A stretch of DNA of 64,000 bases from Chiloscyllium plagiosum (Eukaryota): positions 17,207,658 through 17,271,657 of the forward strand of contig NC_057749.1 in the NCBI RefSeq assembly GCF_004010195.1, written 5' to 3'. This document shows, one piece after another, positions 2,290 through 62,395 of this stretch (its first letter is position 1; every line of letters begins with the position of its first letter). Under the pieces are notes generated by a model. The model saw only the letters and a list, made by a program, of their open reading frames with translations, ran no database searches and was not told where the DNA came from. A program made the position numbers and the translations under genes.

Positions 2290-3235
2290 GAGCTCTTTGG
2301 TGCCTCGAGCAACATCCTTGGCCTGACCATTTTTAGCTGCTGCTCCAGTGATCTCGTCTCCAACATAATATCAAAAGTAGGGATGTTTGCTAATGCTTGC
2401 ATGATGTTCAACACCATGACTCTTCAGATATTGAAGCAATTTATACCCAAATATAGCAATACCTCGATAACATCCAGGCTTTGGCTGACAAGTGACAGGT
2501 CACACAAACACCAATCCATGACCATTTCCAACTAGAGAAAATCTAACCATTGCTCCTTGATACCCAATGGTATAGCCATGACTGAATTCCATATTATCAA
2601 GATCTTGGAGGTACTATTAAGTAGAAACTGAACTGGACTAGCCATATAAATACTTGTGGCTGCGAGCAGGTCAGAGGTGAAGAATGCTGAACTGAATGTC
2701 TCACCACTTGACTTTCTGAAGCCTGTTCAACATCTACAGGGGTCAAGCCAGAAATGTATTGGAAAACTCTTCATTTTTCTGGATGAGTGTAGCTCCAACA
2801 CTCAAGAAGCTTGACACCATCCAGGACAAACTGCCCGGCTTGATTGGCACCATGCTCACATTCATTCCCTTCATCTCCAACACTCAGCAGTCTGAGATAT
2901 CAGTAGGGTGCACTTTGGGATTTAACCAAGTCTCCTCAGATGGCACCTTCCAAACCCATAGCCATTACCATCTAGAAGGACAAGGGCAGCTAATAGATGG
3001 GAACACCACTACCTACAGGTTCCCCTCCAAGCCACTCACCATCCTGACAGGGAAATATGTATCCATTCCTTTAGTGTCACTGGGTTAAATTCCTGGAACT
3101 CTTTCCTGATTGCATTGTGGGTGTACCTTCCAGACATGGCTCAAGAAGGAAGCTCACCACCAGCTTCTCAAGGGCAATAAATGCTGGCCTAGTGTGCAAT
3201 GTCCATGTTCCATGAGTGAATTCAAAAGGAAAATA
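2290..3235 (+). mobile_element. Old CR1/L2-clade LINE 3' fragment
   Basis: Degenerate FADD-like RT motif near 2384; tail (gggtgtacct...caagaagg...caataaatgctggcc) is shared with 44570-44720 (-) and 57400-57610 / 60490-60620. Confidence 0.7.
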
Positions 3236-17004: not shown

Positions 17005-18305
17005 ATATATGAAGGACAAAAGGGTAACTAGGGAGAGAATAGTGCCCCTCAAAGATCAGCAAGGCGGCCTTTGTGTGGAGCCACAGAAAGACTTTTGAAG
17101 ACTGGAGGTTGGCAAACGTGGTGCCACTGTTTAAGAAGGGCAGTAAAGACAAGCCAGGGAACTATAGACCAGTGAGCCTGACCTCAGTGGTGGGCAAGTT
17201 GTTGGAGGGAATCCTGAGGGACAGGATGTACATGTATTTGGAAAGGCAAGGACTGATTCGGGATAGTCAACATGGCTTTGTGTGTGGGAAATCATGTCTC
17301 ACGAACTTGATTGAGTTTTTTGAAGAATAACAAAAAAGATTGATGAGGGCAGAGCAGTAGATGTGATCTACATGGACTCCAGTGAGGCATTCGACAAGGT
17401 TCCCCATGGGAGACTGATTAGCAAGGTGAGATCTCATGGAATANNNNNNNNNNNNNNNNNNNNNNNNNNNNNNNNNNNNNNNNNNNNNNNNNNNNNNNNN
17501 NNNNNNNNNNNNNNNNNNNNNNNNNNNNNNNNNNNNNNNNNNNNNNNNNNNNNNNNNNNNNNNNNNNNNNNNNNNNNNNNNNNNNNNNNNNNNNNNNNNN
17601 NNNNNNNNNNNNNNNNNNNNNNNNNNNNNNNNNNNNNNNNNNNNNNNNNNNNNNNNNNNNNNNNNNNNNNNNNNNNNNNNNNNNNNNNNNNNNNNNNNNN
17701 NNNNNNNNNNNNNNNNNNNNNNNNNNNNNNNNNNNNNNNNNNNNNNNNNNNNNNNNNNNNNNNNNNNNNNNNNNNNNNNNNNNNNNNNNNNNNNNNNNNN
17801 NNNNNNNNNNNNNNNNNNNNNNNNNNNNNNNNNNNNNNNNNNNNNNNNNNNNNNNNNNNNNNNNNNNNNNNNNNNNNNNNNNNNNNNNNNNNNNNNNNNN
17901 NNNNNNNNNNNNNNNNNNNNNNNNNNNNNNNNNNNNNNNNNNNNNNNNNNNNNNNNNNNNNNNNNNNNNNNNNNNNNNNNNNNNNNNNNNNNNNNNNNNN
18001 NNNNNNNNNNNNNNNNNNNNNNNNNNNNNNNNNNNNNNNNNNNNNNNNNNNNNNNNNNNNNNNNNNNNNNNNNNNNNNNNNNNNNNNNNNNNNNNNNNNN
18101 NNNNNNNNNNNNNNNNNNNNNNNNNNNNNNNNNNNNNNNNNNNNNNNNNNNNAGAGGCATTTGGATGGGTATATGAATAGGAAGGGTTTGGAGGGATATG
18201 GGCCGGGTGCTGGCAGGTGGGACTAGATTGGGTTGGGATATCTGGTCGACATGGACGGGTTGGGCCGAAGGGTCTGTTTCCGTGCTGTACATCTCTATGA
18301 CTCTA
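17005..18305 (+). mobile_element. CR1 LINE spanning the assembly gap
   Basis: ANVVPLFKKG...PGNYRPVSLTSVVGKLLE...QHGF; CR1 3' tail after the gap. Confidence 0.9.
17444..18152. other. Assembly gap (N run)
   Basis: Run of n bases. Confidence 1.
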
Positions 18306-25863: not shown

Positions 25864-26411
25864 TAGAATGTGTATAGGGTATAAGCAGGCAGGGAAAGAG
25901 TTAAGTTCTGAGTTTTGTGAAAAGTTCAGCTGAGCATGAATCAGATCAGATGAGAACTTGTAGTTAACAATGGGGTGCTGAGGGCAAGGGTAATGGGTTA
26001 ACAAGATGGAAAAGCATTCATTATGTCAAGCCATTTAACAATATTGGAAGCATTCAGTATGCAAGGTCAGCTAACAAGGGGAAAAGTATCCATTGTATGA
26101 ATCCAATTAACAAGGTTAAGAGCATTCATTGTATGACAGTAAAGGACTTGGTCTCTGCCATTAATACTCGTTGATTGTAACGGTCACCCATTTAATATGT
26201 ATGTTACCTTATCTGGATATTCTTCCCTTTTAAAATTACTATATAATTCATTGAGAAACTGTTCTTCCAGAGAAGATCGTGAACTTGTGTCCCTGTGCAC
26301 ATGGGCTATTATTCTCTCTCCCTCCAGGGCCAGGAATAAAGATGAAGGAGCTAAAATTATGCTGTGTCTCTGAGCGTTTTGCTTTGACTGGGGTGGGGGA
26401 ACAGGATGACA
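25864..26411 (+). mobile_element. Solo LTR (548 bp) with 4-bp TSD
   Basis: T(G)AGAATG...GACA ends; TSD cctt at 25860-25863 and 26412-26415; TATATAA 26240-26246; AATAAA 26335-26340; homologous to the reverse complement of 57611-58143. Confidence 0.88.
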
Positions 26412-52779: not shown

Positions 52780-54730
52780 CTACATAGCCAGGAGGAGAAG
52801 GGAAGCGTTCATAAGGTCTAGGCAGCTAAGAACAGAATGGGCCCTGGAGGAATATCGGAAGAGTAGGACAAGTCTTAAATGAGGAATCAAGCAGGCTGAA
52901 AGGGGTCATGAAATAGCTTTAGTGAGCAGAATTAAGGAGAATCCCAAAGCATTTTATTCTTATATAAGAAGCAAGCAGGTAACTAGAGAAAGGATTGGTC
53001 CACTAAAGGATAATGAAGGAAGGCTGTGTGTCAAACCTGAGAGAATGGGTGAGATTCTAAATGATTACTTTGCATCAGTAAGAAACATGATGAAAGGAAC
53101 ATGATGAATCTTGAGATTAGAGATAGAAGTTTGATTAGTCTGGATCACGTTGACGTAAGTGGGAAGGTGTGTTGGATAGGCGAGAGGTTACTAAGATTTA
53201 CAAATCCCCAGGACCGGATGGGATCTATCCCAGGTTGCTGAGGGAGGTGAGAGAGGAAATAGCTGGGGCCCTGACCGATATCTTTGTGGCATCCTTAAAT
53301 ACAGGTGAGGTGCCAGAGGACTGGAAGGTTGCTCATGTCCCCCTGTACAAGAAGGGTAGTAGGGATATTCCGGGTAACTATAGACCAGTGAGCCTAATGT
53401 CAGTGGTGGGAAAGTTGCTGGAGAGGGTACTGAGGGATAGGATCTATTTATATTTAGAAAAGAATGGGCTTCTCAGTGATAGGCAACATGGTTTTATGTG
53501 GGGGAGATCATGCCTTACCAACTTAATAGAATTCTTCAAGGAAGTATCCAAGTTGATAGATGAAGGGAGGGCGATTGATGTCGTATATATTGACTTTAGT
53601 AAGGCATTTGATAAGGTTCCCATGGTAGACTAATGGAGAAGGTGAAGTCACATGAGGTGCAGGGTGTTCTAGCTAGGTGGATAAAGAACTGGTTGAGCAA
53701 CAAAGAGCAGTAGTTGAAGGGAGTTTCTTGAAATGGAGAAAGGTGACCAGTGGTGTTCCACAGGGGTCAGTGTTGGGGCCACTGTTGTTTGTAATATACA
53801 TAAATGATCTGGAAGAGGGCACTGTTGGTATGATCAGCAAGTTTGAAGATGACACAAAGATTGGTGTAGTAGCAGAAAGCATCAGGGACTGTCAGAGAAT
53901 ACAGGTGAATATAGACTGGAGAGTTGGGCGGAAAAGTGGCAGATGGATTTCAATCCAGACAAATGAGGTAATGCATTTATGCAAGACTAATTCGAGAGTG
54001 AATTATACAATGAACGGAAAAGCCTTGGGAAAAGTTGATGGACAGAGAGATCTGGGAGTGCAGGTCCATTGTACCCTGAAGGATACTGCACAGGTGGATA
54101 GAGTGGTCAAGAAGGCATATAGTATGCTTGCCTTCATTGGACAGGGTATTGAGTATAAGCGCTGGCAAGTCATGTTAAAATTGTGCAAGACATTGGTTCG
54201 TTCTGGTCGCCACATTACTAAAAGTATGTGGACGCTTTGGAGAGGGTGCAGAATAGGTTTACAACGATATTGTCTGGTATGGAAGGTGCTAGCTATGAAG
54301 AGGCGTTGAGTAGGTTAGGTTTGTTTTCATTAGAAAAAAAGGAGATTTAGGGGGGACCTGATTGAGGTTTACAAAATCATGAAGGGGAGAGACAGGGCGG
54401 ATAGAGACCAGCTTTTTCCCAGGGTGAAGGATTCAATAACGAGAGGTCACGCTTTCAAGGTGAGAGGTGGAAAGTTTATGGGGGATACACGCGGCAAGTA
54501 CTTCACACAGAGTGTGGTGGGCGTCTGGAACGCGTTGCCAGCAGAGGTGGTAGAGGCAGGCACGATAGATTCATTTAAGATGCATCTGGGCAGATGCATG
54601 AGTAGGTGGGGAGCAGAGGGATACAGATGCTTAGGAATTGACTGACCGGTTTAGACAGTACATTTCAATCGACTGAGGCTTAGAGGCTGAAGGGCCTGTT
54701 CCAGGGCTGTAAATTTTCTTTGTCCTTTGG
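52780..54730 (+). mobile_element. CR1 LINE nested in an older CR1 (~52470-52780, ~54740-54930)
   Basis: KSPGPDGIYPRLL, GNYRPVSL, SGVPQGSVLGPLLF, 3' tail. Confidence 0.93.
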
Positions 54731-56840: not shown

Positions 56841-57399
56841 CAATGCTATTCACTGTTGTTATGCCAACATCAATAAGTCACAGCTGTTCTTCCACTTAAT
56901 TTTGAAGAAGAACAAACTACATTTCTTCTTCAATGAAAGTATCGATAGAATAAGATTGTACCTTTGCCGGAGGCAGCATTTTGAAATTTTCAAGATATGT
57001 GTACTCTTCTTACTGCAACCTGACCTAATTTCTCTTGCTGTCATACATGGGTTGACTTGATAGGATTCTTTTGAAAAAGAATGTACAAGTTAATGAGATG
57101 CAGGCAAGTGTTTGCTTTCATGTTAAGGAGCCAAAGTTAAATCAAGGATTGTTATTTTTGAGATCCTGGTAGAAAATGCATAATTACATTATTCTTGTGA
57201 TACATCTAATAGTGCTGATTGACAGTTAACTGCCTGGCTTTGTTTGAAATTTAAATCAGGCATATTAACTCTTGCATTGTCCTGAGAAATTAACCAGCTA
57301 TTTTGTTGAGTTGAATTCAGTTCAGTCTACATATGCTTTTTGTGTACACTGTATTAATAAATGCAGCGTCCAGTACACTCAAGTGTATATTACAAAATG

Positions 57400-57610
57400 G
57401 ACTGTAGCAATTCACCAAAATTACTTAGATATCATCTTACACACCTTCAAATATTACAAGAAAGAAGGACAAAGGCAGCAGATGCATGGGAAAACCACCA
57501 CATCCCCTCCAAGTTGCTCACCATCCTGACTTGAAAATGTATCACTATTCCTTCAGTGCTGCTGGATTAACATCTTGGAATTCTCCCAAACAGCATTCTG
57601 GGTGTACCGA
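57400..57610 (+). mobile_element. Old CR1/L2-clade LINE tail, left part (resumes at 60490-60620)
   Basis: Colinear with ~2920-3130; stops at gggtgtaccga. Confidence 0.75.
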
Positions 57611-58143
57611 TGTTGTCCCGGTTCTCCCCTCAGTCGAAATAAAATGCTCAGAGACACTGTATAATTTTGCCTCCCCCGTCTTTTTTCTGGGCCCTGGAGG
57701 GAGAGAGAACGATTGCCCATGTGCACAGGGATATGAGTTCTTGGTCTTCTCTCTTGTACAACAGTTTCTTTATGAATTATATAGTTATTTTACAGGGAGG
57801 AGCATCCAGATAAGGCAACATAGATATTGATTGGGTGACCATTACAATCAGCAAAGACTTAGCCATCTGCTGTTACAGAATGAATGTTCTTAACCTTACC
57901 TGGCTTCACATATGAATACTTGTAACCTTGTTAAACTGACCTTACAAAACTGAATGCTTCCAATATTGTTAAATGGCTCTACAGAATGAATGCTTTTCCA
58001 CCTTGTTATCTATTACCCTTGCCTCCAGCATCCCATTGTTAACTGCAAGCTCTTATCTGATCTGAGTCATGCTTAGTTGAACCTCTTGTTTTATAAAACT
58101 CAGAATTTGACTCTTTGCCTGCTTATACCCAAACACATTCTCA
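57611..58143 (-). mobile_element. 3' LTR of an LTR retroelement
   Basis: TGAGAATG...CAACA on the minus strand; homologous to the solo LTR 25864-26411; TATA box at ~57777-57784. Confidence 0.88.
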
Positions 58144-58155
58144 TTCTCTCCTTTT
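58144..58155 (-). other. Polypurine tract
   Basis: Minus strand AAAAGGAGAGAA directly abuts the LTR TG. Confidence 0.8.
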
Positions 58156-58174
58156 ATCATTTCATGATAACCAC

Positions 58175-58330
58175 CTAGATGGCACTACCAGCTTTCATAA
58201 GACTCTGACAGCCAATATTTAAGCAGGTTATTGACACACAGCATGCAATGGTGATAACAAAAAATACTAGTCAGTCACAGTAATTAGAGTTTGAAGAATC
58301 CTCCCACTTGGGAAAAAAAATTCATCAGTG
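58175..58330 (-). pseudogene. Possible retroviral env membrane-anchor remnant
   Basis: GRILQTLITV, frameshift, then LVFFVITIACCVSITCLNIGCQSLMKAGSAI* (58270-58175), ending just upstream of the polypurine tract. Confidence 0.4.
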
Positions 58331-58509
58331 AAGCTCTTAAATCCACAGTCTTTAGTGACCACTCCATCCCTTCCAAGTCGAGTGGAAATAAGCCAGTTCT
58401 CTGCAAATTTCCTTCAGTAAAATCCAACCTGAAAACAAAATCTAGTCTGTCCTTCCGCGCCACTCCACGGAGAAATCTGAATTCTTGGATCAGGGCAGTT
58501 AAATACTTC

Positions 58510-58819
58510 ACAAAACTGATGAGACTTCCATCCTTCTGGAGATGCTTCAGATGGAGAATACCAGCGCATCTGAGCATTTGGTGCAGCAGCTGCAGGCTCG
58601 GTGAATGCAGCATTCTTTGCTGCATCTGCTCCCGTTCTGCTGTTAAATGTAACAAAGCCAACTGGCTGATTTGATGTTGGCTTGATCAGTGAACCTTCAT
58701 ATCCCTTAAATGATCTAAAAACAAGGTAAAGTTCACGTGGTTTAATGTCCACAGGAAGACCACTGATGAAGCATACTAACCTCCTCTTCACTGTTGTTAG
58801 CTTCACTTTTCATGCTCAT
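58510..58819 (-). pseudogene. RBPMS2: Processed, internally deleted RBPMS-family (RBPMS2/hermes-like) retrocopy
   Basis: [14 protein letters not shown], frameshift, then [87 protein letters not shown]; no introns; stop codon lost. RBPMS2 versus RBPMS is less certain than the family. Confidence 0.9.
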
Positions 58820-60149
58820 GACTAGGGAGTTGATTGAATCCATTGGATCAGGTTGTGGAGGGGTGGGCGGTGGTCCGAAGGCGTGCTTTACCTGTGAATG
58901 GAGAAACTCTAGCGAAGATTTTAGTTGCAGGAAGTATCTTTGTATTTCCCCTCTCATTCCTTCTTTGCCAAGGTGGTTGTCAGTATGATGATAGTCGCAC
59001 ATTTAACTACACTAAAGTGTGTGTACCTATTTCAACATTCTCAGTCGTTTTGACGTCTGTTAGTCTGTTCACTATTTATGACATTATCAAGTTTTATGCA
59101 ATCCATAAACTTATAAATTGTACTGCCTAAGCAATTCAGTCAATTATAAACAACAATCAATGGTCCTAAAGTCAAACCCTCTGGTACCTCACTCAGGTTA
59201 TTCAAAAATTATTTTCCTTTAACAAATTGATACTTGGCTAACGTGAAAGCAGGAAGAGTATTTTGAAAGTCTGGAACGGCAAGAAAACAACAAAATGTTT
59301 CCTGTACTTTAGCAATTGGAGAGGCAGTTTCAGTTCAGATTTAAATCTCAAATATTCGTGGAAAACAAATGCTGAAAATTTTAAAATTTGTTATCCAAAT
59401 GAAAGTTCACAAATAAAACTGTTGGAATTACGGTGGCAACTTTGGTTGAGATCAACATTCTTTGACTTTGCAATATGAAGAGGGCCAATGAAGTCTTAAC
59501 AATAATTGAAAGAATTTAAATGGCTCAGCCTAAAGTTCTAAAATTCTCTAAGATCTTAACAAAACATCAGACTCTAAATACACACTTTTTGTGAAAACTC
59601 TGCATTAAAAACATAGTAGCAAATATAGTACTTTAATATAGTACTTTCATCTGGCTAAAGCATGACCACTAACCCAACTATGTTTTTTTAACAGGCATTA
59701 TAGAATTTCAAACAAATCAGAGGCTCAAGGCATTCAATCATTTTGTTTTAAGGTTACAAGTTTGATAATTTTGAAAAGGACATTGTACAATTTCAATGTA
59801 AGAACAAAATCTAGCCCATTACATAGCCCACAAAACACATTGAATTGAGATTCTGATTCAAACAGGGCAAAACAATTATTTAAAATGATTTTCTGAACCA
59901 GTATTTTAACAAACCGGTATTTTTAAACATCAAACACTCTGAGCATGGCACAATTTACGTTGAAACTTGCCTTTTTCAACCCAAGTATTAGTACAACCTT
60001 AATTTGTGGTTTTCATTTTTATCGACCTATTTATCTACTCACTGAAATTACACTTAAAAAGAGATAGCCCTAGTGGTGAGCCACGTGGCGCCACAGTCCA
60101 ACCCACACTCTTTTTTTTTTTCCCCCCCCCTCCAGAACAAAGACTTGCA

Positions 60150-60489
60150 GAGGCTCAAATTTTGCACGAGGGGACTTTAACCCTTTCTCAATTTACTCCT
60201 CTCAAGGGCTCGAACCCCATTAAACCCAGAGAATGTGAATCCCAATTAAATACAGAGAGCTTCAATCTCACTTAAACACAGAGTTTGAACACCAGCACAG
60301 CGCGGAGGACTCGAACCCCAATCAAACCCGCTCAGGAGACTTGAACCTCAGTATCGTGCAGAGGACTCGAACCTCAAACAAACCCAACCAGGGGAATTGA
60401 ACCCCAGTATTGCACAGAGGACTCGAACCTCAATTATTCCCCATCCGGGGACTTGAACCCCAAAACTGCGCAGGGGACTTGAACCTCCC
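60150..60489 (-). repeat. Tandem array of B-box-like motifs (GGTTCRAGTCC) with a 56-bp dimeric period
   Basis: Plus-strand motif starts 60172, 60206, 60231, 60257, 60281, 60307, 60337, 60363, 60393, 60419, 60449, 60475. Confidence 0.88.
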
Positions 60490-60620
60490 CCTACAGCAAA
60501 TGTACTACAGTGGTTCAAGAAGGCTACTCATCCCCACTTTTTCGAGAGCAGCTAGGGATTGGCAATTATTTCTAGCCCAGCCAGTGACACTTGCACCCCT
60601 GAATGAATTTTTAAAAATAG
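60490..60620 (+). mobile_element. Old CR1/L2-clade LINE tail, right part
   Basis: cctacagcaaatgtactacagtggttcaagaagg... continues 57400-57610. Confidence 0.75.
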
Positions 60621-60769
60621 CTGCACTACGCTGCCAGCCTGCACTACTAACAGTCCTAAGTTAGTTGTCAGCACAATTGTTTGCGTACGCATTTGCACAA
60701 AAACATGAAGGAATCAAAGCTAATGCAAAATACAATCTCAGCTAATTCTCTTTACATCAAAACCCAGAG

Positions 60770-62395
60770 TCTACAAAGTCATAGAGATGTGCAGCATAGA
60801 AACAGGTCCTTCAACCCGTCTATGCCGACCAGATATCCCAACCCAATCTAGTCCCACCTGCCAGCACCCGGCCCATATCCCTCCAAACCCTTCCTATTCA
60901 TATACCCATCCAAATGCTTTTTAAATGTTGCAATTGTACCAGCCTCCACCATTTCCTCTGGCAGCTCATTCCATACGTGTACCACCATCTGCATGAAAAC
61001 GTTGCCCCTTAGGTCTCTTTTATATCTTTCCCCTCTCACCCTAAACCTATACCCTCTAGTTCTGGACTCCCCGACCCCAGGGAAAAGACTTTGCCTATTT
61101 ATCCTATCCATGCCCCTCAATTTTGCAAACCTCTATAAGGTTGCCCCTCAGCCTCCGACGCTCCGAGGGAAAATAGTCCCAGCCTGTTCAGCCTCTCCCT
61201 ATAGCTCAAATCCTCCAATCCCAGCAACATCCTTGTAAATCTTTTCTGAACCCCTTCAAGTTTCACAACATCTTTCTGATAGGAAGGAGACCAGAACTGC
61301 ACGCAGTATTCCAACAGTGGCCTAACCAATGACCTGTACAGCCTCAACATGACGTCCCCAACTCCTGTACTCAATACTCTGACCAATAAAAGAAAGCATG
61401 TCAAACGCCTTCTTCACTATCCTATCTACCTGCGACTCACTTTCAAGGAGCTATGAACCTGCAGTCCAAAGTTTCTTTGTTCAGCAACACTCTCTAGGAC
61501 CTTACCATTAAGTGTATAAGCCCTGCTAAAATTTCTTTTCCCAAAATGCAGCACCTCATATTTATCTAAATTAAACTCCATCTGCCACTTCTCGGCCCAT
61601 TGGCACATCTGATCAAGATTCTGTTGTAGTCTGAGGTAACCTTCTTCGCTGTTCACTACACCTCCAATTTTGATGTCATCTGCAAACTTACCAACTGTAC
61701 CTCTTATGCTCGCATCCAAATCATTTATATAAATGATGAAAAGCAGTGGACCCAGCACCGATCCTTATGGCATTCTACTGGTCACAGGCCTCCAGTCTTA
61801 AAAAAAAAACCCTCCACCACCACCCTCTGTCTTCTACCTTTGAGCCAGTTCTGTATCCAAATGGCTAGTTCTCCCTGTATTCCGTGAGACTTAACCCTGC
61901 TAATCAGTCTCCCGGGGGGAACCTTGTCAAATGCCTTACTGAAGTCCATACAGATCACATCTACTGCTCTACCCTCATCAATCCTCTTTGTTACTTCCTC
62001 AAAAAAACTCAATCAAGTTTGTGAGACATGATTTCCCATGCATAAAACTATGTTGACTATCCCTTATCAGTCCTTGCCTTTCCAAATACATGTACATCCT
62101 GTCCCTCAGGATTCCCTCCAACAACTTGACCAGTACTGACGCCAGGCTCACTGGTCTATAGTTCCCTGGCTTGTCCTTACCACCCTTCTTAAACAGTGGC
62201 ACCACGTTAGCCAACCTCCAGTCTTCCGGCACCTCACCTGTGACTATCAATGATACAAATATCTCAGTAAGAGGCCCAGCAACCACTTCTCCAGCTTCCC
62301 ACAGAGTTCTAGGGTACACCTGATCAGGTCCTGGGGATTTATTCACCTTTGTGTTTCAAGACATCCAGCACTTCCTCCTCTGTAATATGGACATG
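60770..62395 (-). mobile_element. CR1 LINE, 5'-truncated, frameshifted
   Basis: Consecutive minus-strand ORF2 segments from KSPGPDQVYPRTL through FADD to the tail. Confidence 0.95.

Follow-up and report, generated by a model that had tools for sequence, protein, structure and literature searches.

An intronless RBPMS2 segment carried by a truncated non-autonomous LTR retroelement and its multicopy relatives in the shark Chiloscyllium plagiosum

The stretch of DNA analysed here (the window; 64,000 nucleotides, C40:17207658-17271657 of the 3.56-Gb assembly of Chiloscyllium plagiosum) is repeat-rich vertebrate DNA that contains, close to one end, a piece of the host gene RBPMS2 embedded in a mobile element. 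The insert that holds it is very probably a dead, 5'-truncated, non-autonomous long terminal repeat (LTR) retroelement, whose RBPMS2 part was acquired by retroviral-type gene transduction and then amplified. Two groups of related copies carry the case. The first, family A, includes the window copy and has lost part of the RBPMS2 coding sequence, whereas the second, family B, retains the part that family A lacks. Both families are non-autonomous derivatives and not proviruses.

The host-derived part of the insert is recognisable at the levels of both protein and DNA. An open reading frame (ORF) at 58414-58809 on the minus strand matches Pfam RRM_1 (E 4e-7), the RBPMS2 structure PDB 2m9k (E 3e-24) and the RRM structure of RBPMS (E 2e-23). 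The intron-bearing parent gene, found by searching with the RBPMS2 portion absent from the insert, lies 7.8 Mb away on the same contig. Its exons have GT/AG borders and are 100% identical to P0115 (RBPMS2a isoform X9, Chiloscyllium plagiosum); exon 1 (C40:25026088-25026205) is followed by a 36-kb intron and five more coding exons (25.06-25.13 Mb), which end in ...SRQFC and the stop codon. By blastn, the window insert is 86-95% identical to exons 2, 3, 4 and the last exon, with seamless exon joints, and the identity between element and exons is 84-95% when the window copy and one family-A sibling are taken together and 78-95% in two family-B copies. Family-A copies hold the last 68 nt of exon 1, and in the window the segment starts with 26 nt of 5' untranslated region (5'UTR), with the start codon at 58819-58817. 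Because four exon joints (58781/58780, 58705/58704, 58666/58665 and 58570/58569) are crossed seamlessly, the captured template was a spliced RNA.

The segment, 346 nt long in family A, has not remained intact. At ~58610/58609 there is an internal deletion of 255 nt, in frame and with TGC at both breakpoints, which starts 7 nt short of the exon 4 end, runs into exon 6 and removes L73-T157 of P0115, taking away the end of the RRM. Exon skipping was considered as the origin of this gap and rejected, as both breakpoints lie away from exon borders. A 2-nt frameshift follows the joint of exons 1 and 2 in the window copy, whose former stop codon (58509-58507) now reads GAA, followed by 7 nt of host-like sequence. 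Host homology stops at 58500, precisely where the host gene reads GTAAGT. No poly(A) was found from the end of the coding sequence to the polypurine tract, and no duplication bracketing the RBPMS2 segment, in the window copy or its siblings. A first-pass annotation of this DNA had described an intronless RBPMS2-like retrocopy in the sense of the element, with no poly(A) or target-site duplication (TSD) of its own; the map of exon joints against the parent gene confirms the former and the region around the segment the latter.

The insert is one member of a large family. A first look in its own genome gave 2146 candidates for the LTR (57611-58143), 654 for 58144-59000, 630 for 58300-58990, 620 for the AT-rich block (59001-60100) and 299 for the tandem array, numbers that are lower bounds on candidates and not exact copy numbers, the candidates being unscored except for 40 per search (the query among them). 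Candidates scored with the LTR, RBPMS2 or AT-rich block as query are 81-87% identical, mostly over its whole length; the 39 others scored in the LTR search are 82-85% identical and mostly full length, the 39 other copies scored in the AT-rich search are 81-85% identical, and matches to the tandem array are weaker (68-81%). The multicopy family postulated in the first-pass annotation, with separate searches for these blocks as its test, is thus borne out: the LTR, RBPMS2 and AT-rich blocks are each multicopy, and in the fetched sibling loci they are collinear with identical junctions.

Complete siblings read, in the sense direction, 5' LTR (TGAGAATG...GGGACGACA), ATAT, TGGCGTAGTCGGCAGGAT, a leader of ~250 nt, tandem array, AT-rich block, RBPMS2 block, tail, AAAAGGAGRGAA and 3' LTR. 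Their LTR ends are TGAGAA...ACA, and those of the window LTR are TGAGAA...GACAACA. A second LTR past the array is carried by 13 of the 17 evaluable copies, at 250-400 nt in 12 of them and at ~960 nt in one. The 18-mer TGGCGTAGTCGGCAGGAT, which lies 4 nt after the 5' LTR and is absent in the truncated window copy, forms the primer-binding site; it is perfectly complementary to the 3'-terminal 18 nt of tRNA-Ser-AGA-1-1 and tRNA-Ser-TGA-2-1 in the sequences given in PMC10359600. Eight copies were testable for a 4-bp TSD, which is perfect in four, agrees at 3/4 bases in one and at two bases or fewer in three. With two LTRs, a primer-binding site for tRNA-Ser, a polypurine tract and a 4-bp TSD, the complete family-A siblings are bona fide LTR elements. 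The leader, the AT-rich block and the tail of family A gave no Pfam match at all, and so none to gag, protease, reverse transcriptase, integrase or env (translations with X at stops), and the family was presumably mobilised in trans by a related autonomous endogenous retrovirus (ERV). Some siblings have been rearranged further, with nested insertions or internal deletions in L016, L028, L040 and L046; L046 has a 660-bp insertion and L040 a second LTR inside. The window itself also contains a family-A solo LTR at ~25865-26406 (plus strand), which is 78% identical to the LTR of the insert, lies in the opposite orientation and is flanked by CCTT-like 4-bp repeats.

Intronless copies of the gene part that family A lacks were found with an 84-aa query, which gave 84 candidates and, with an E-value limit of 0.001, 57 matches, including two at the host exons. 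Ten loci of this second family, family B, have ~2 kb of mutual homology; five contain host coding positions 1-543 and the other five stop at 418. The loci end in ...GGGAACCTAACA, beyond which the flanks are unrelated. The family-B LTR (termini TGAGATG...AACA; 1022 first-look candidates) is preceded by the same polypurine tract and is otherwise unlike the family-A LTR. Pairs of this LTR give element sizes of 3326 bp (on C21, LTRs 84% alike), ~3370 bp (on C30) and, including a 660-bp insertion, 4331 bp (on C15). In locus L051 an upstream ORF matches the reverse transcriptase-RNase H of XMRV/MLV (E 9.5e-10, residues 603-671 of 681), although against Pfam RNase_H it reaches only E 0.071. Longer relatives of this ORF were absent among 521 candidates, RRM_1 was the sole Pfam match in family-B ORFs, and nothing comparable to the RNase H remnant was found in family A or the window. 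The host-derived part begins ~480 nt past the remnant and includes ~76 nt that precede the start codon in the host gene. Hence family B is a short, defective, class-I-like (gamma/epsilon-type) ERV derivative with RBPMS2 mRNA where integrase and env would be expected.

The two families appear to descend from the same event. On either side of the gene they have non-host DNA in common, namely 58846-58996 and the tail up to the polypurine tract, and both lose host homology 7 nt past the stop codon. These common non-host flanks and the same end of host homology argue for a single capture of RBPMS2, and independent captures in A and B were rejected because of the flanks. Compared with family B, family A is short of ~180 nt at the 5' joint and of 255 nt of coding sequence and differs in its 5' half and LTRs; the AT-rich block of family A was not found in the seven family-B loci compared. 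It follows that family A descends from a B-type element by recombination and deletion. The block at 58846-58996 includes a motif (HTD.HLGKEG) that may resemble the N-terminus of a retroviral integrase; neither Pfam nor PDB gave support for this idea. The retroviral transduction that the first-pass annotation had read from the insert is supported as a process, whereas the place of the capture shifts to the older, ERV-derived family B with its full coding sequence, of which the annotated element is a recombinant descendant.

A different origin for the segment would be a processed pseudogene made by a long interspersed nuclear element (LINE), which landed in a defective retroviral element and was later co-amplified. 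LINEs are abundant here, as seen from RVT_1 fragments and a very high depth over LINE tails, the ~76 nt of host sequence ahead of the start codon might represent a complete 5'UTR, and if the tail were 3'UTR the segment could be a near-complete mRNA. However, there is no poly(A) before the polypurine tract and no duplication around the segment, detectable host homology ends 7 nt past the stop codon, and the segment sits in the orientation of the element at the site of the missing retroviral genes, like the LTR-mediated retrocopies described in PMC5131818. We therefore consider a LINE-made pseudogene very unlikely and favour retroviral-type transduction.

The order of events under transduction can be outlined as follows. 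A spliced RBPMS2 mRNA would have entered once into a defective class-I-like element, behind its RNase H end and in place of integrase and env, most likely by recombination during reverse transcription. The resulting family B, with the full coding sequence and ~76 nt of 5'UTR, would have reached tens of copies. One B descendant would then have lost 255 nt (in frame, at the TGC microhomology) and ~180 nt at the 5' junction, and would have gained other LTRs and another 5' half to become family A, which burst to several hundred copies. In such elements the LTR would set the start and end of the transcript, tRNA-Ser would prime the first DNA strand and the polypurine tract the second, and the integrase of a related autonomous ERV would leave the 4-bp duplication. 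The window copy would subsequently have landed in a LINE tail, its 5' LTR lost or never present.

Several observations weigh against this account. The window copy has only its 3' LTR, the 5' LTR and the ~250-300-nt leader of complete siblings being missing, so that it can be recognised as an LTR element only through its siblings. Neither an autonomous partner with the same LTRs nor an RBPMS2-free parent element was found, and the extent of amplification is gauged from the candidate numbers qualified above. The 344-nt tail may be a downstream RBPMS2 3'UTR exon or retroviral 3' non-coding DNA. Finally, family-B differences from the host that are present in at least half of the copies comprise 5 nonsynonymous and 15 synonymous changes, which would also fit purifying selection.

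With regard to the tail, a spliced 3'UTR exon may be considered because host homology stops exactly at the host GTAAGT. A corresponding host exon was sought, and no match near the gene was found among the 40 candidates scored out of 874 and out of 495. Translation of 58144-58415 in three frames (X at stops) gave no Pfam match, and with no protein similarity in any frame the earlier label of an env-like tail does not hold.

The question of selection bears on whether the gene piece is a passenger or a protein in use. Differences were counted from the host coding sequence, and junctions were compared copy by copy, no consensus being built. Changes found in single copies are synonymous in 16-29% of cases over five well-covered family-region classes and in 22% when pooled (94/421), compared with 25-27% for random change; the element-borne RBPMS2 copies thus decay neutrally. 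Differences present in at least half of the family-A copies are 9 nonsynonymous to 8 synonymous, and the synonymous excess in family B is about what is expected from change in the host gene since the capture, so that selection on the element is not demanded. Of 24 family-A copies, two keep an open reading frame as far as the normal stop. The window copy, with its frameshift, lost stop and deleted RRM end, does not have the makings of a functional RBPMS2 retrogene, and nothing was found to suggest use of the element-borne RBPMS2 protein. Given the neutral single-copy changes, the broken frames and a main burst that followed loss of the C-terminal part of the RRM, the gene piece is therefore read as a passenger. 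Raw reads of RNA run X21 (53 reads) all cover the stretch partially and none is at least 99% alike; they are accordingly assigned to paralogues, and no conclusion on expression is drawn.

It could be argued instead that the element makes or made use of the protein, for example in RNA binding or germ-granule targeting, and that its capture and retention were selected. The 255-nt deletion is in frame, the common differences of family B are mostly synonymous, at least one copy has an open frame and an annotation as a 132-aa 'RBPMS2-like' protein (P0001), and RBPMS2 is treated in papers on germ granules and germ cells. Nevertheless, the largest burst, that of family A, came after the C-terminal part of the RRM was lost, the family-A ratio is near neutral once synonymous change in the host is allowed for, the frame is broken in 22 of the 24 A copies and the C-terminus is absent in five of the ten B copies. 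Use by the element is, on this evidence, highly unlikely. An even more doubtful variant confines use to the founder, in that the founding B-type element would have expressed full-length RBPMS2 from its LTR and the protein would have bound the element RNA and ferried it to the oocyte germ plasm; if true, this would explain hundreds of germ-line copies, with family A amplified later without the protein. P0001 itself is a public entry named 'RNA-binding protein with multiple splicing 2-like', in which upstream non-host residues precede a truncated RRM, an 85-residue gap and the C-terminus, and it is most likely a family-A element copy annotated as a gene.

The boundaries of the window copy are well defined, with 57611-60489 forming one insert inside a LINE-type tail. 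The repeat at 57392-57606 recurs without interruption at 44893-44680 and 2974-3127, and alignment with these two copies shows the left LINE half ending in ...GGGTGTACC and the right half resuming with ...TACAGCAAATG, with zero LINE bases lost. Contigs of paralogous LINE copies from run X9 read ...GGGTCTA immediately before 60490 (17 loose ends, agreement 0.63). The LINE alignment and these contigs together give the target as GGGTGTA/CCTA/CAGC, and the flanks CCGA and CCTA accordingly form a 4-bp duplication. Contigs of run X1, which is possibly the sample behind the assembly itself, span both insert junctions, 57526-57708 and 59976-60800 (records 2 and 8), and a 769-nt contig from a different organism (X9, record 23; 29 differences) spans the right one. 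Because both junctions are bridged in X1 contigs, the arrangement is no assembly artefact. A single 2.9-kb insert in a LINE tail, as first proposed, is thus substantiated by the uninterrupted copies and the bridging contigs; the possible 4-bp TSD (ccga/ccta) proposed with it is upheld, given that 3/4 bases match and the duplication of the family is also 4 bp. The order then read on the minus strand (array, AT-rich DNA, intronless RBPMS2, tail, polypurine tract, LTR) is likewise correct apart from its labels (Table 1).

Table 1. Parts of the window copy and its flanks, in order of increasing position; positions are those of the window.
Feature	Position	Strand	Basis or remark
LINE-type 3' tail, left half	57392..57606	+	Matches two window copies; LINE reverse-transcriptase fragments upstream (53154-54306, +)
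Target-site duplication, left copy CCGA	57607..57610		3/4 bases equal to CCTA
3' LTR, 533 bp, TGAGAATG...GGGACAACA	57611..58143	-	Termini aligned with siblings
Polypurine tract AAAAGGAGAGAA abutting LTR	58144..58155	-	Read directly; same tract in families A and B
3' internal segment (tail)	58156..58499	-	Common to families A and B, ~73-78%
Intronless RBPMS2-derived segment	58500..58845	-	blastn to host exons 86-95%; RRM_1 and RBPMS2 structure matches
Non-host block common with family B	58846..58996	-	A-B homology begins at 58996; in B downstream of RNase H remnant
Family-A-specific AT-rich non-coding region	58997..60100	-	Multicopy; GC 0.32 (1.1 kb)
G/A homopolymer run and tandem array, 5' end of truncated copy	60101..60489	-	Tandem Repeats Finder (TRF)
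Target-site duplication, right copy CCTA	60490..60493		Direct reading, LINE alignment, X9 contigs
LINE-type tail, right half	60494..60640	+	Alignment with uninterrupted copies

Joints in runs X1 and X17 that skip ~2950-3020 nt were considered as a possible empty site and rejected, as they begin at 57488-57545 and not at 57610. Since they also occur in an insert-bearing organism and have the wrong start, they represent paralogous LINE copies. The word depth over the LINE tail repeat is 13,000-59,000 in the sequencing runs. Over the insert it is in the thousands, compared with 16-43 on unique flank, in all three organisms sampled, a depth that is no copy number and from which it follows that the family is abundant in all three. 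Decayed LINE reverse-transcriptase fragments (RVT_1) flank the insert at 53154-54306 (plus strand) and 61429-62355 (minus strand).

The missing front of the window copy can be explained in two ways. The copy begins at the first array unit, straight after the CCTA duplication, and the same truncated junction is bridged in the second organism by X9 record 23, so the truncated state is old and common to two organisms and the window copy was inserted before they split. In the third organism, the single informative contig aligns only from 60501 onwards. Normal integration followed by deletion of the front fits the 4-bp duplication. Alternatively, the copy may never have been complete, being a 5'-truncated reverse-transcription product joined by one-ended integration or break repair. 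Its end coincides exactly with the target site and every LINE base is preserved, the identical junction recurs in the second organism, four further family copies also lack the 5' LTR, and there is a precedent for retrotransposon DNA being captured at breaks (PMC4516963). On the other hand, the flanks form a duplication of the length typical for the family, with 3/4 bases equal, as integration and later deletion would leave; the other four truncated copies break at differing points, as random later deletions would; and the TC that follows the CA of the LTR differs from the AT of the family spacer, so this is not an unprocessed cDNA end. For the latter reason an unprocessed LTR end in the window copy was rejected. 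A copy incomplete from the start thus seems somewhat less likely than integration followed by deletion.

Both families are old. Family-A LTR pairs have Kimura two-parameter distances of 0.11-0.15 (four elements, two on partial LTRs), and because this is about the divergence between copies (81-87% identity), family A appears to stem from one old burst. With 1e-9 changes per site per year taken as a general, unmeasured rate, this indicates a burst tens of millions of years ago. Family-B copies are 71-85% alike over the main aligned blocks and one B LTR pair is 84% alike, on which grounds family B is the older of the two.

The tandem array at the 5' end of the window copy has TRF periods of 56 (60305-60487) and 26 (60215-60283), and its units hold GGTTCRAGTCC, a motif resembling a tRNA T-arm or B-box. 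A search against Rfam (E up to 1) gave only two 15-nt T-arm matches below threshold, and the one 94-nt call by ARAGORN spans the insert junction, leaving the motif alone. The RNA fold of the array is not unusually stable (z-score -0.45; 68 of 200 shuffles fold as well). Covariation in a stem, GAGG/CCTC versus GGGG/CCCC (36 and 11 of 56 units, respectively), was considered as evidence of structure and rejected: because these are two inherited unit types, it amounts to at most one event, and the other pairings, in nine units, include two A-C and one G-T. The B-box array of the first-pass annotation is therefore not borne out as a functional one, the motif occurring with no tRNA-like fold, Rfam family or unusual stability. 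The array sits behind the primer site, where retroviral packaging signals lie, and any link to these is a guess. Between the array and the AT-rich block is a G9-A11 homopolymer run (60110-60130), which is not found in sibling L029; run X1 has five extra T at 60110. The orthologous array in the second organism is ~75 nt, or roughly one unit, shorter at window 60369-60445 (X9, record 23).

The layout of family B is that of transducing (acutely transforming) retroviruses, in which a defective, helper-dependent gamma-type genome carries a spliced cellular coding sequence in place of part of pol/env. Unlike these, the elements described here are endogenous, amplified in the germ line and known from sequence rather than from expression of the passenger, which is no oncogene. 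To our knowledge, there is no exogenous virus that corresponds to the RBPMS2-carrying element. LARD, TRIM and VL30 elements are likewise trans-mobilised, non-autonomous LTR elements of high copy number with LTRs, a primer-binding site, a polypurine tract and a non-coding interior; unlike family A, they are not defined by captured host coding sequence.

A closer parallel is LTR-mediated retroposition (Tan et al. 2016, PMC5131818), where retrocopies without poly(A) take the place of the coding interior of LTR elements and can be recopied non-autonomously, and where microsimilarity at the joints is central. The window copy is alike in being an intronless host mRNA piece inside an LTR element with neither poly(A) nor duplication of its own: its parent has introns of up to 36 kb, it is embedded between LTR-element parts and no A-tract is present. 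In contrast to the single or few secondary copies reported in that paper, tens (family B) and then hundreds (family A) are found here, and the chimera changed its LTRs and shrank by deletions. HERV-K with FAM8A1, maize Bs1 and LTR-borne retrocopies in rice, all cited in the same paper, are also LTR elements or ERVs with a processed host gene fragment; the HERV-K case involves, according to that paper, a single captured pseudogene, whereas here the host is a shark and the copy number far higher. Our search of the open literature on RBPMS2 and LTRs, shark ERVs, Chiloscyllium retrocopies and captured host genes found no description of an RBPMS2-carrying LTR element. The process is thus a known one, and what is unusual is its scale (tens, then hundreds), the survival of two successive forms and the shark host.

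The elements provide a case of retroviral-type gene transduction in the germ line of cartilaginous fish, with two rounds of amplification. Since an intermediate with the full coding sequence and its stripped descendant both survive, the steps can be read from the genome. With hundreds of RRM-coding fragments in the genome, gene predictors and counts of retrocopies may go astray, as seen from at least one copy annotated as 'RBPMS2-like', and an insertion common to different organisms means that copies of the family are usable as phylogenetic markers.

Two minor observations concern the parent gene and the window at large. The alternative last exon of RBPMS2a isoform X9 (48 residues; L055-L063, offsets 69259-69402 of the joined 90 kb) has many weaker look-alikes in the introns of the same gene and looks like an exonised repeat. 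The window also contains an assembly gap of 709 N at 17443-18152.

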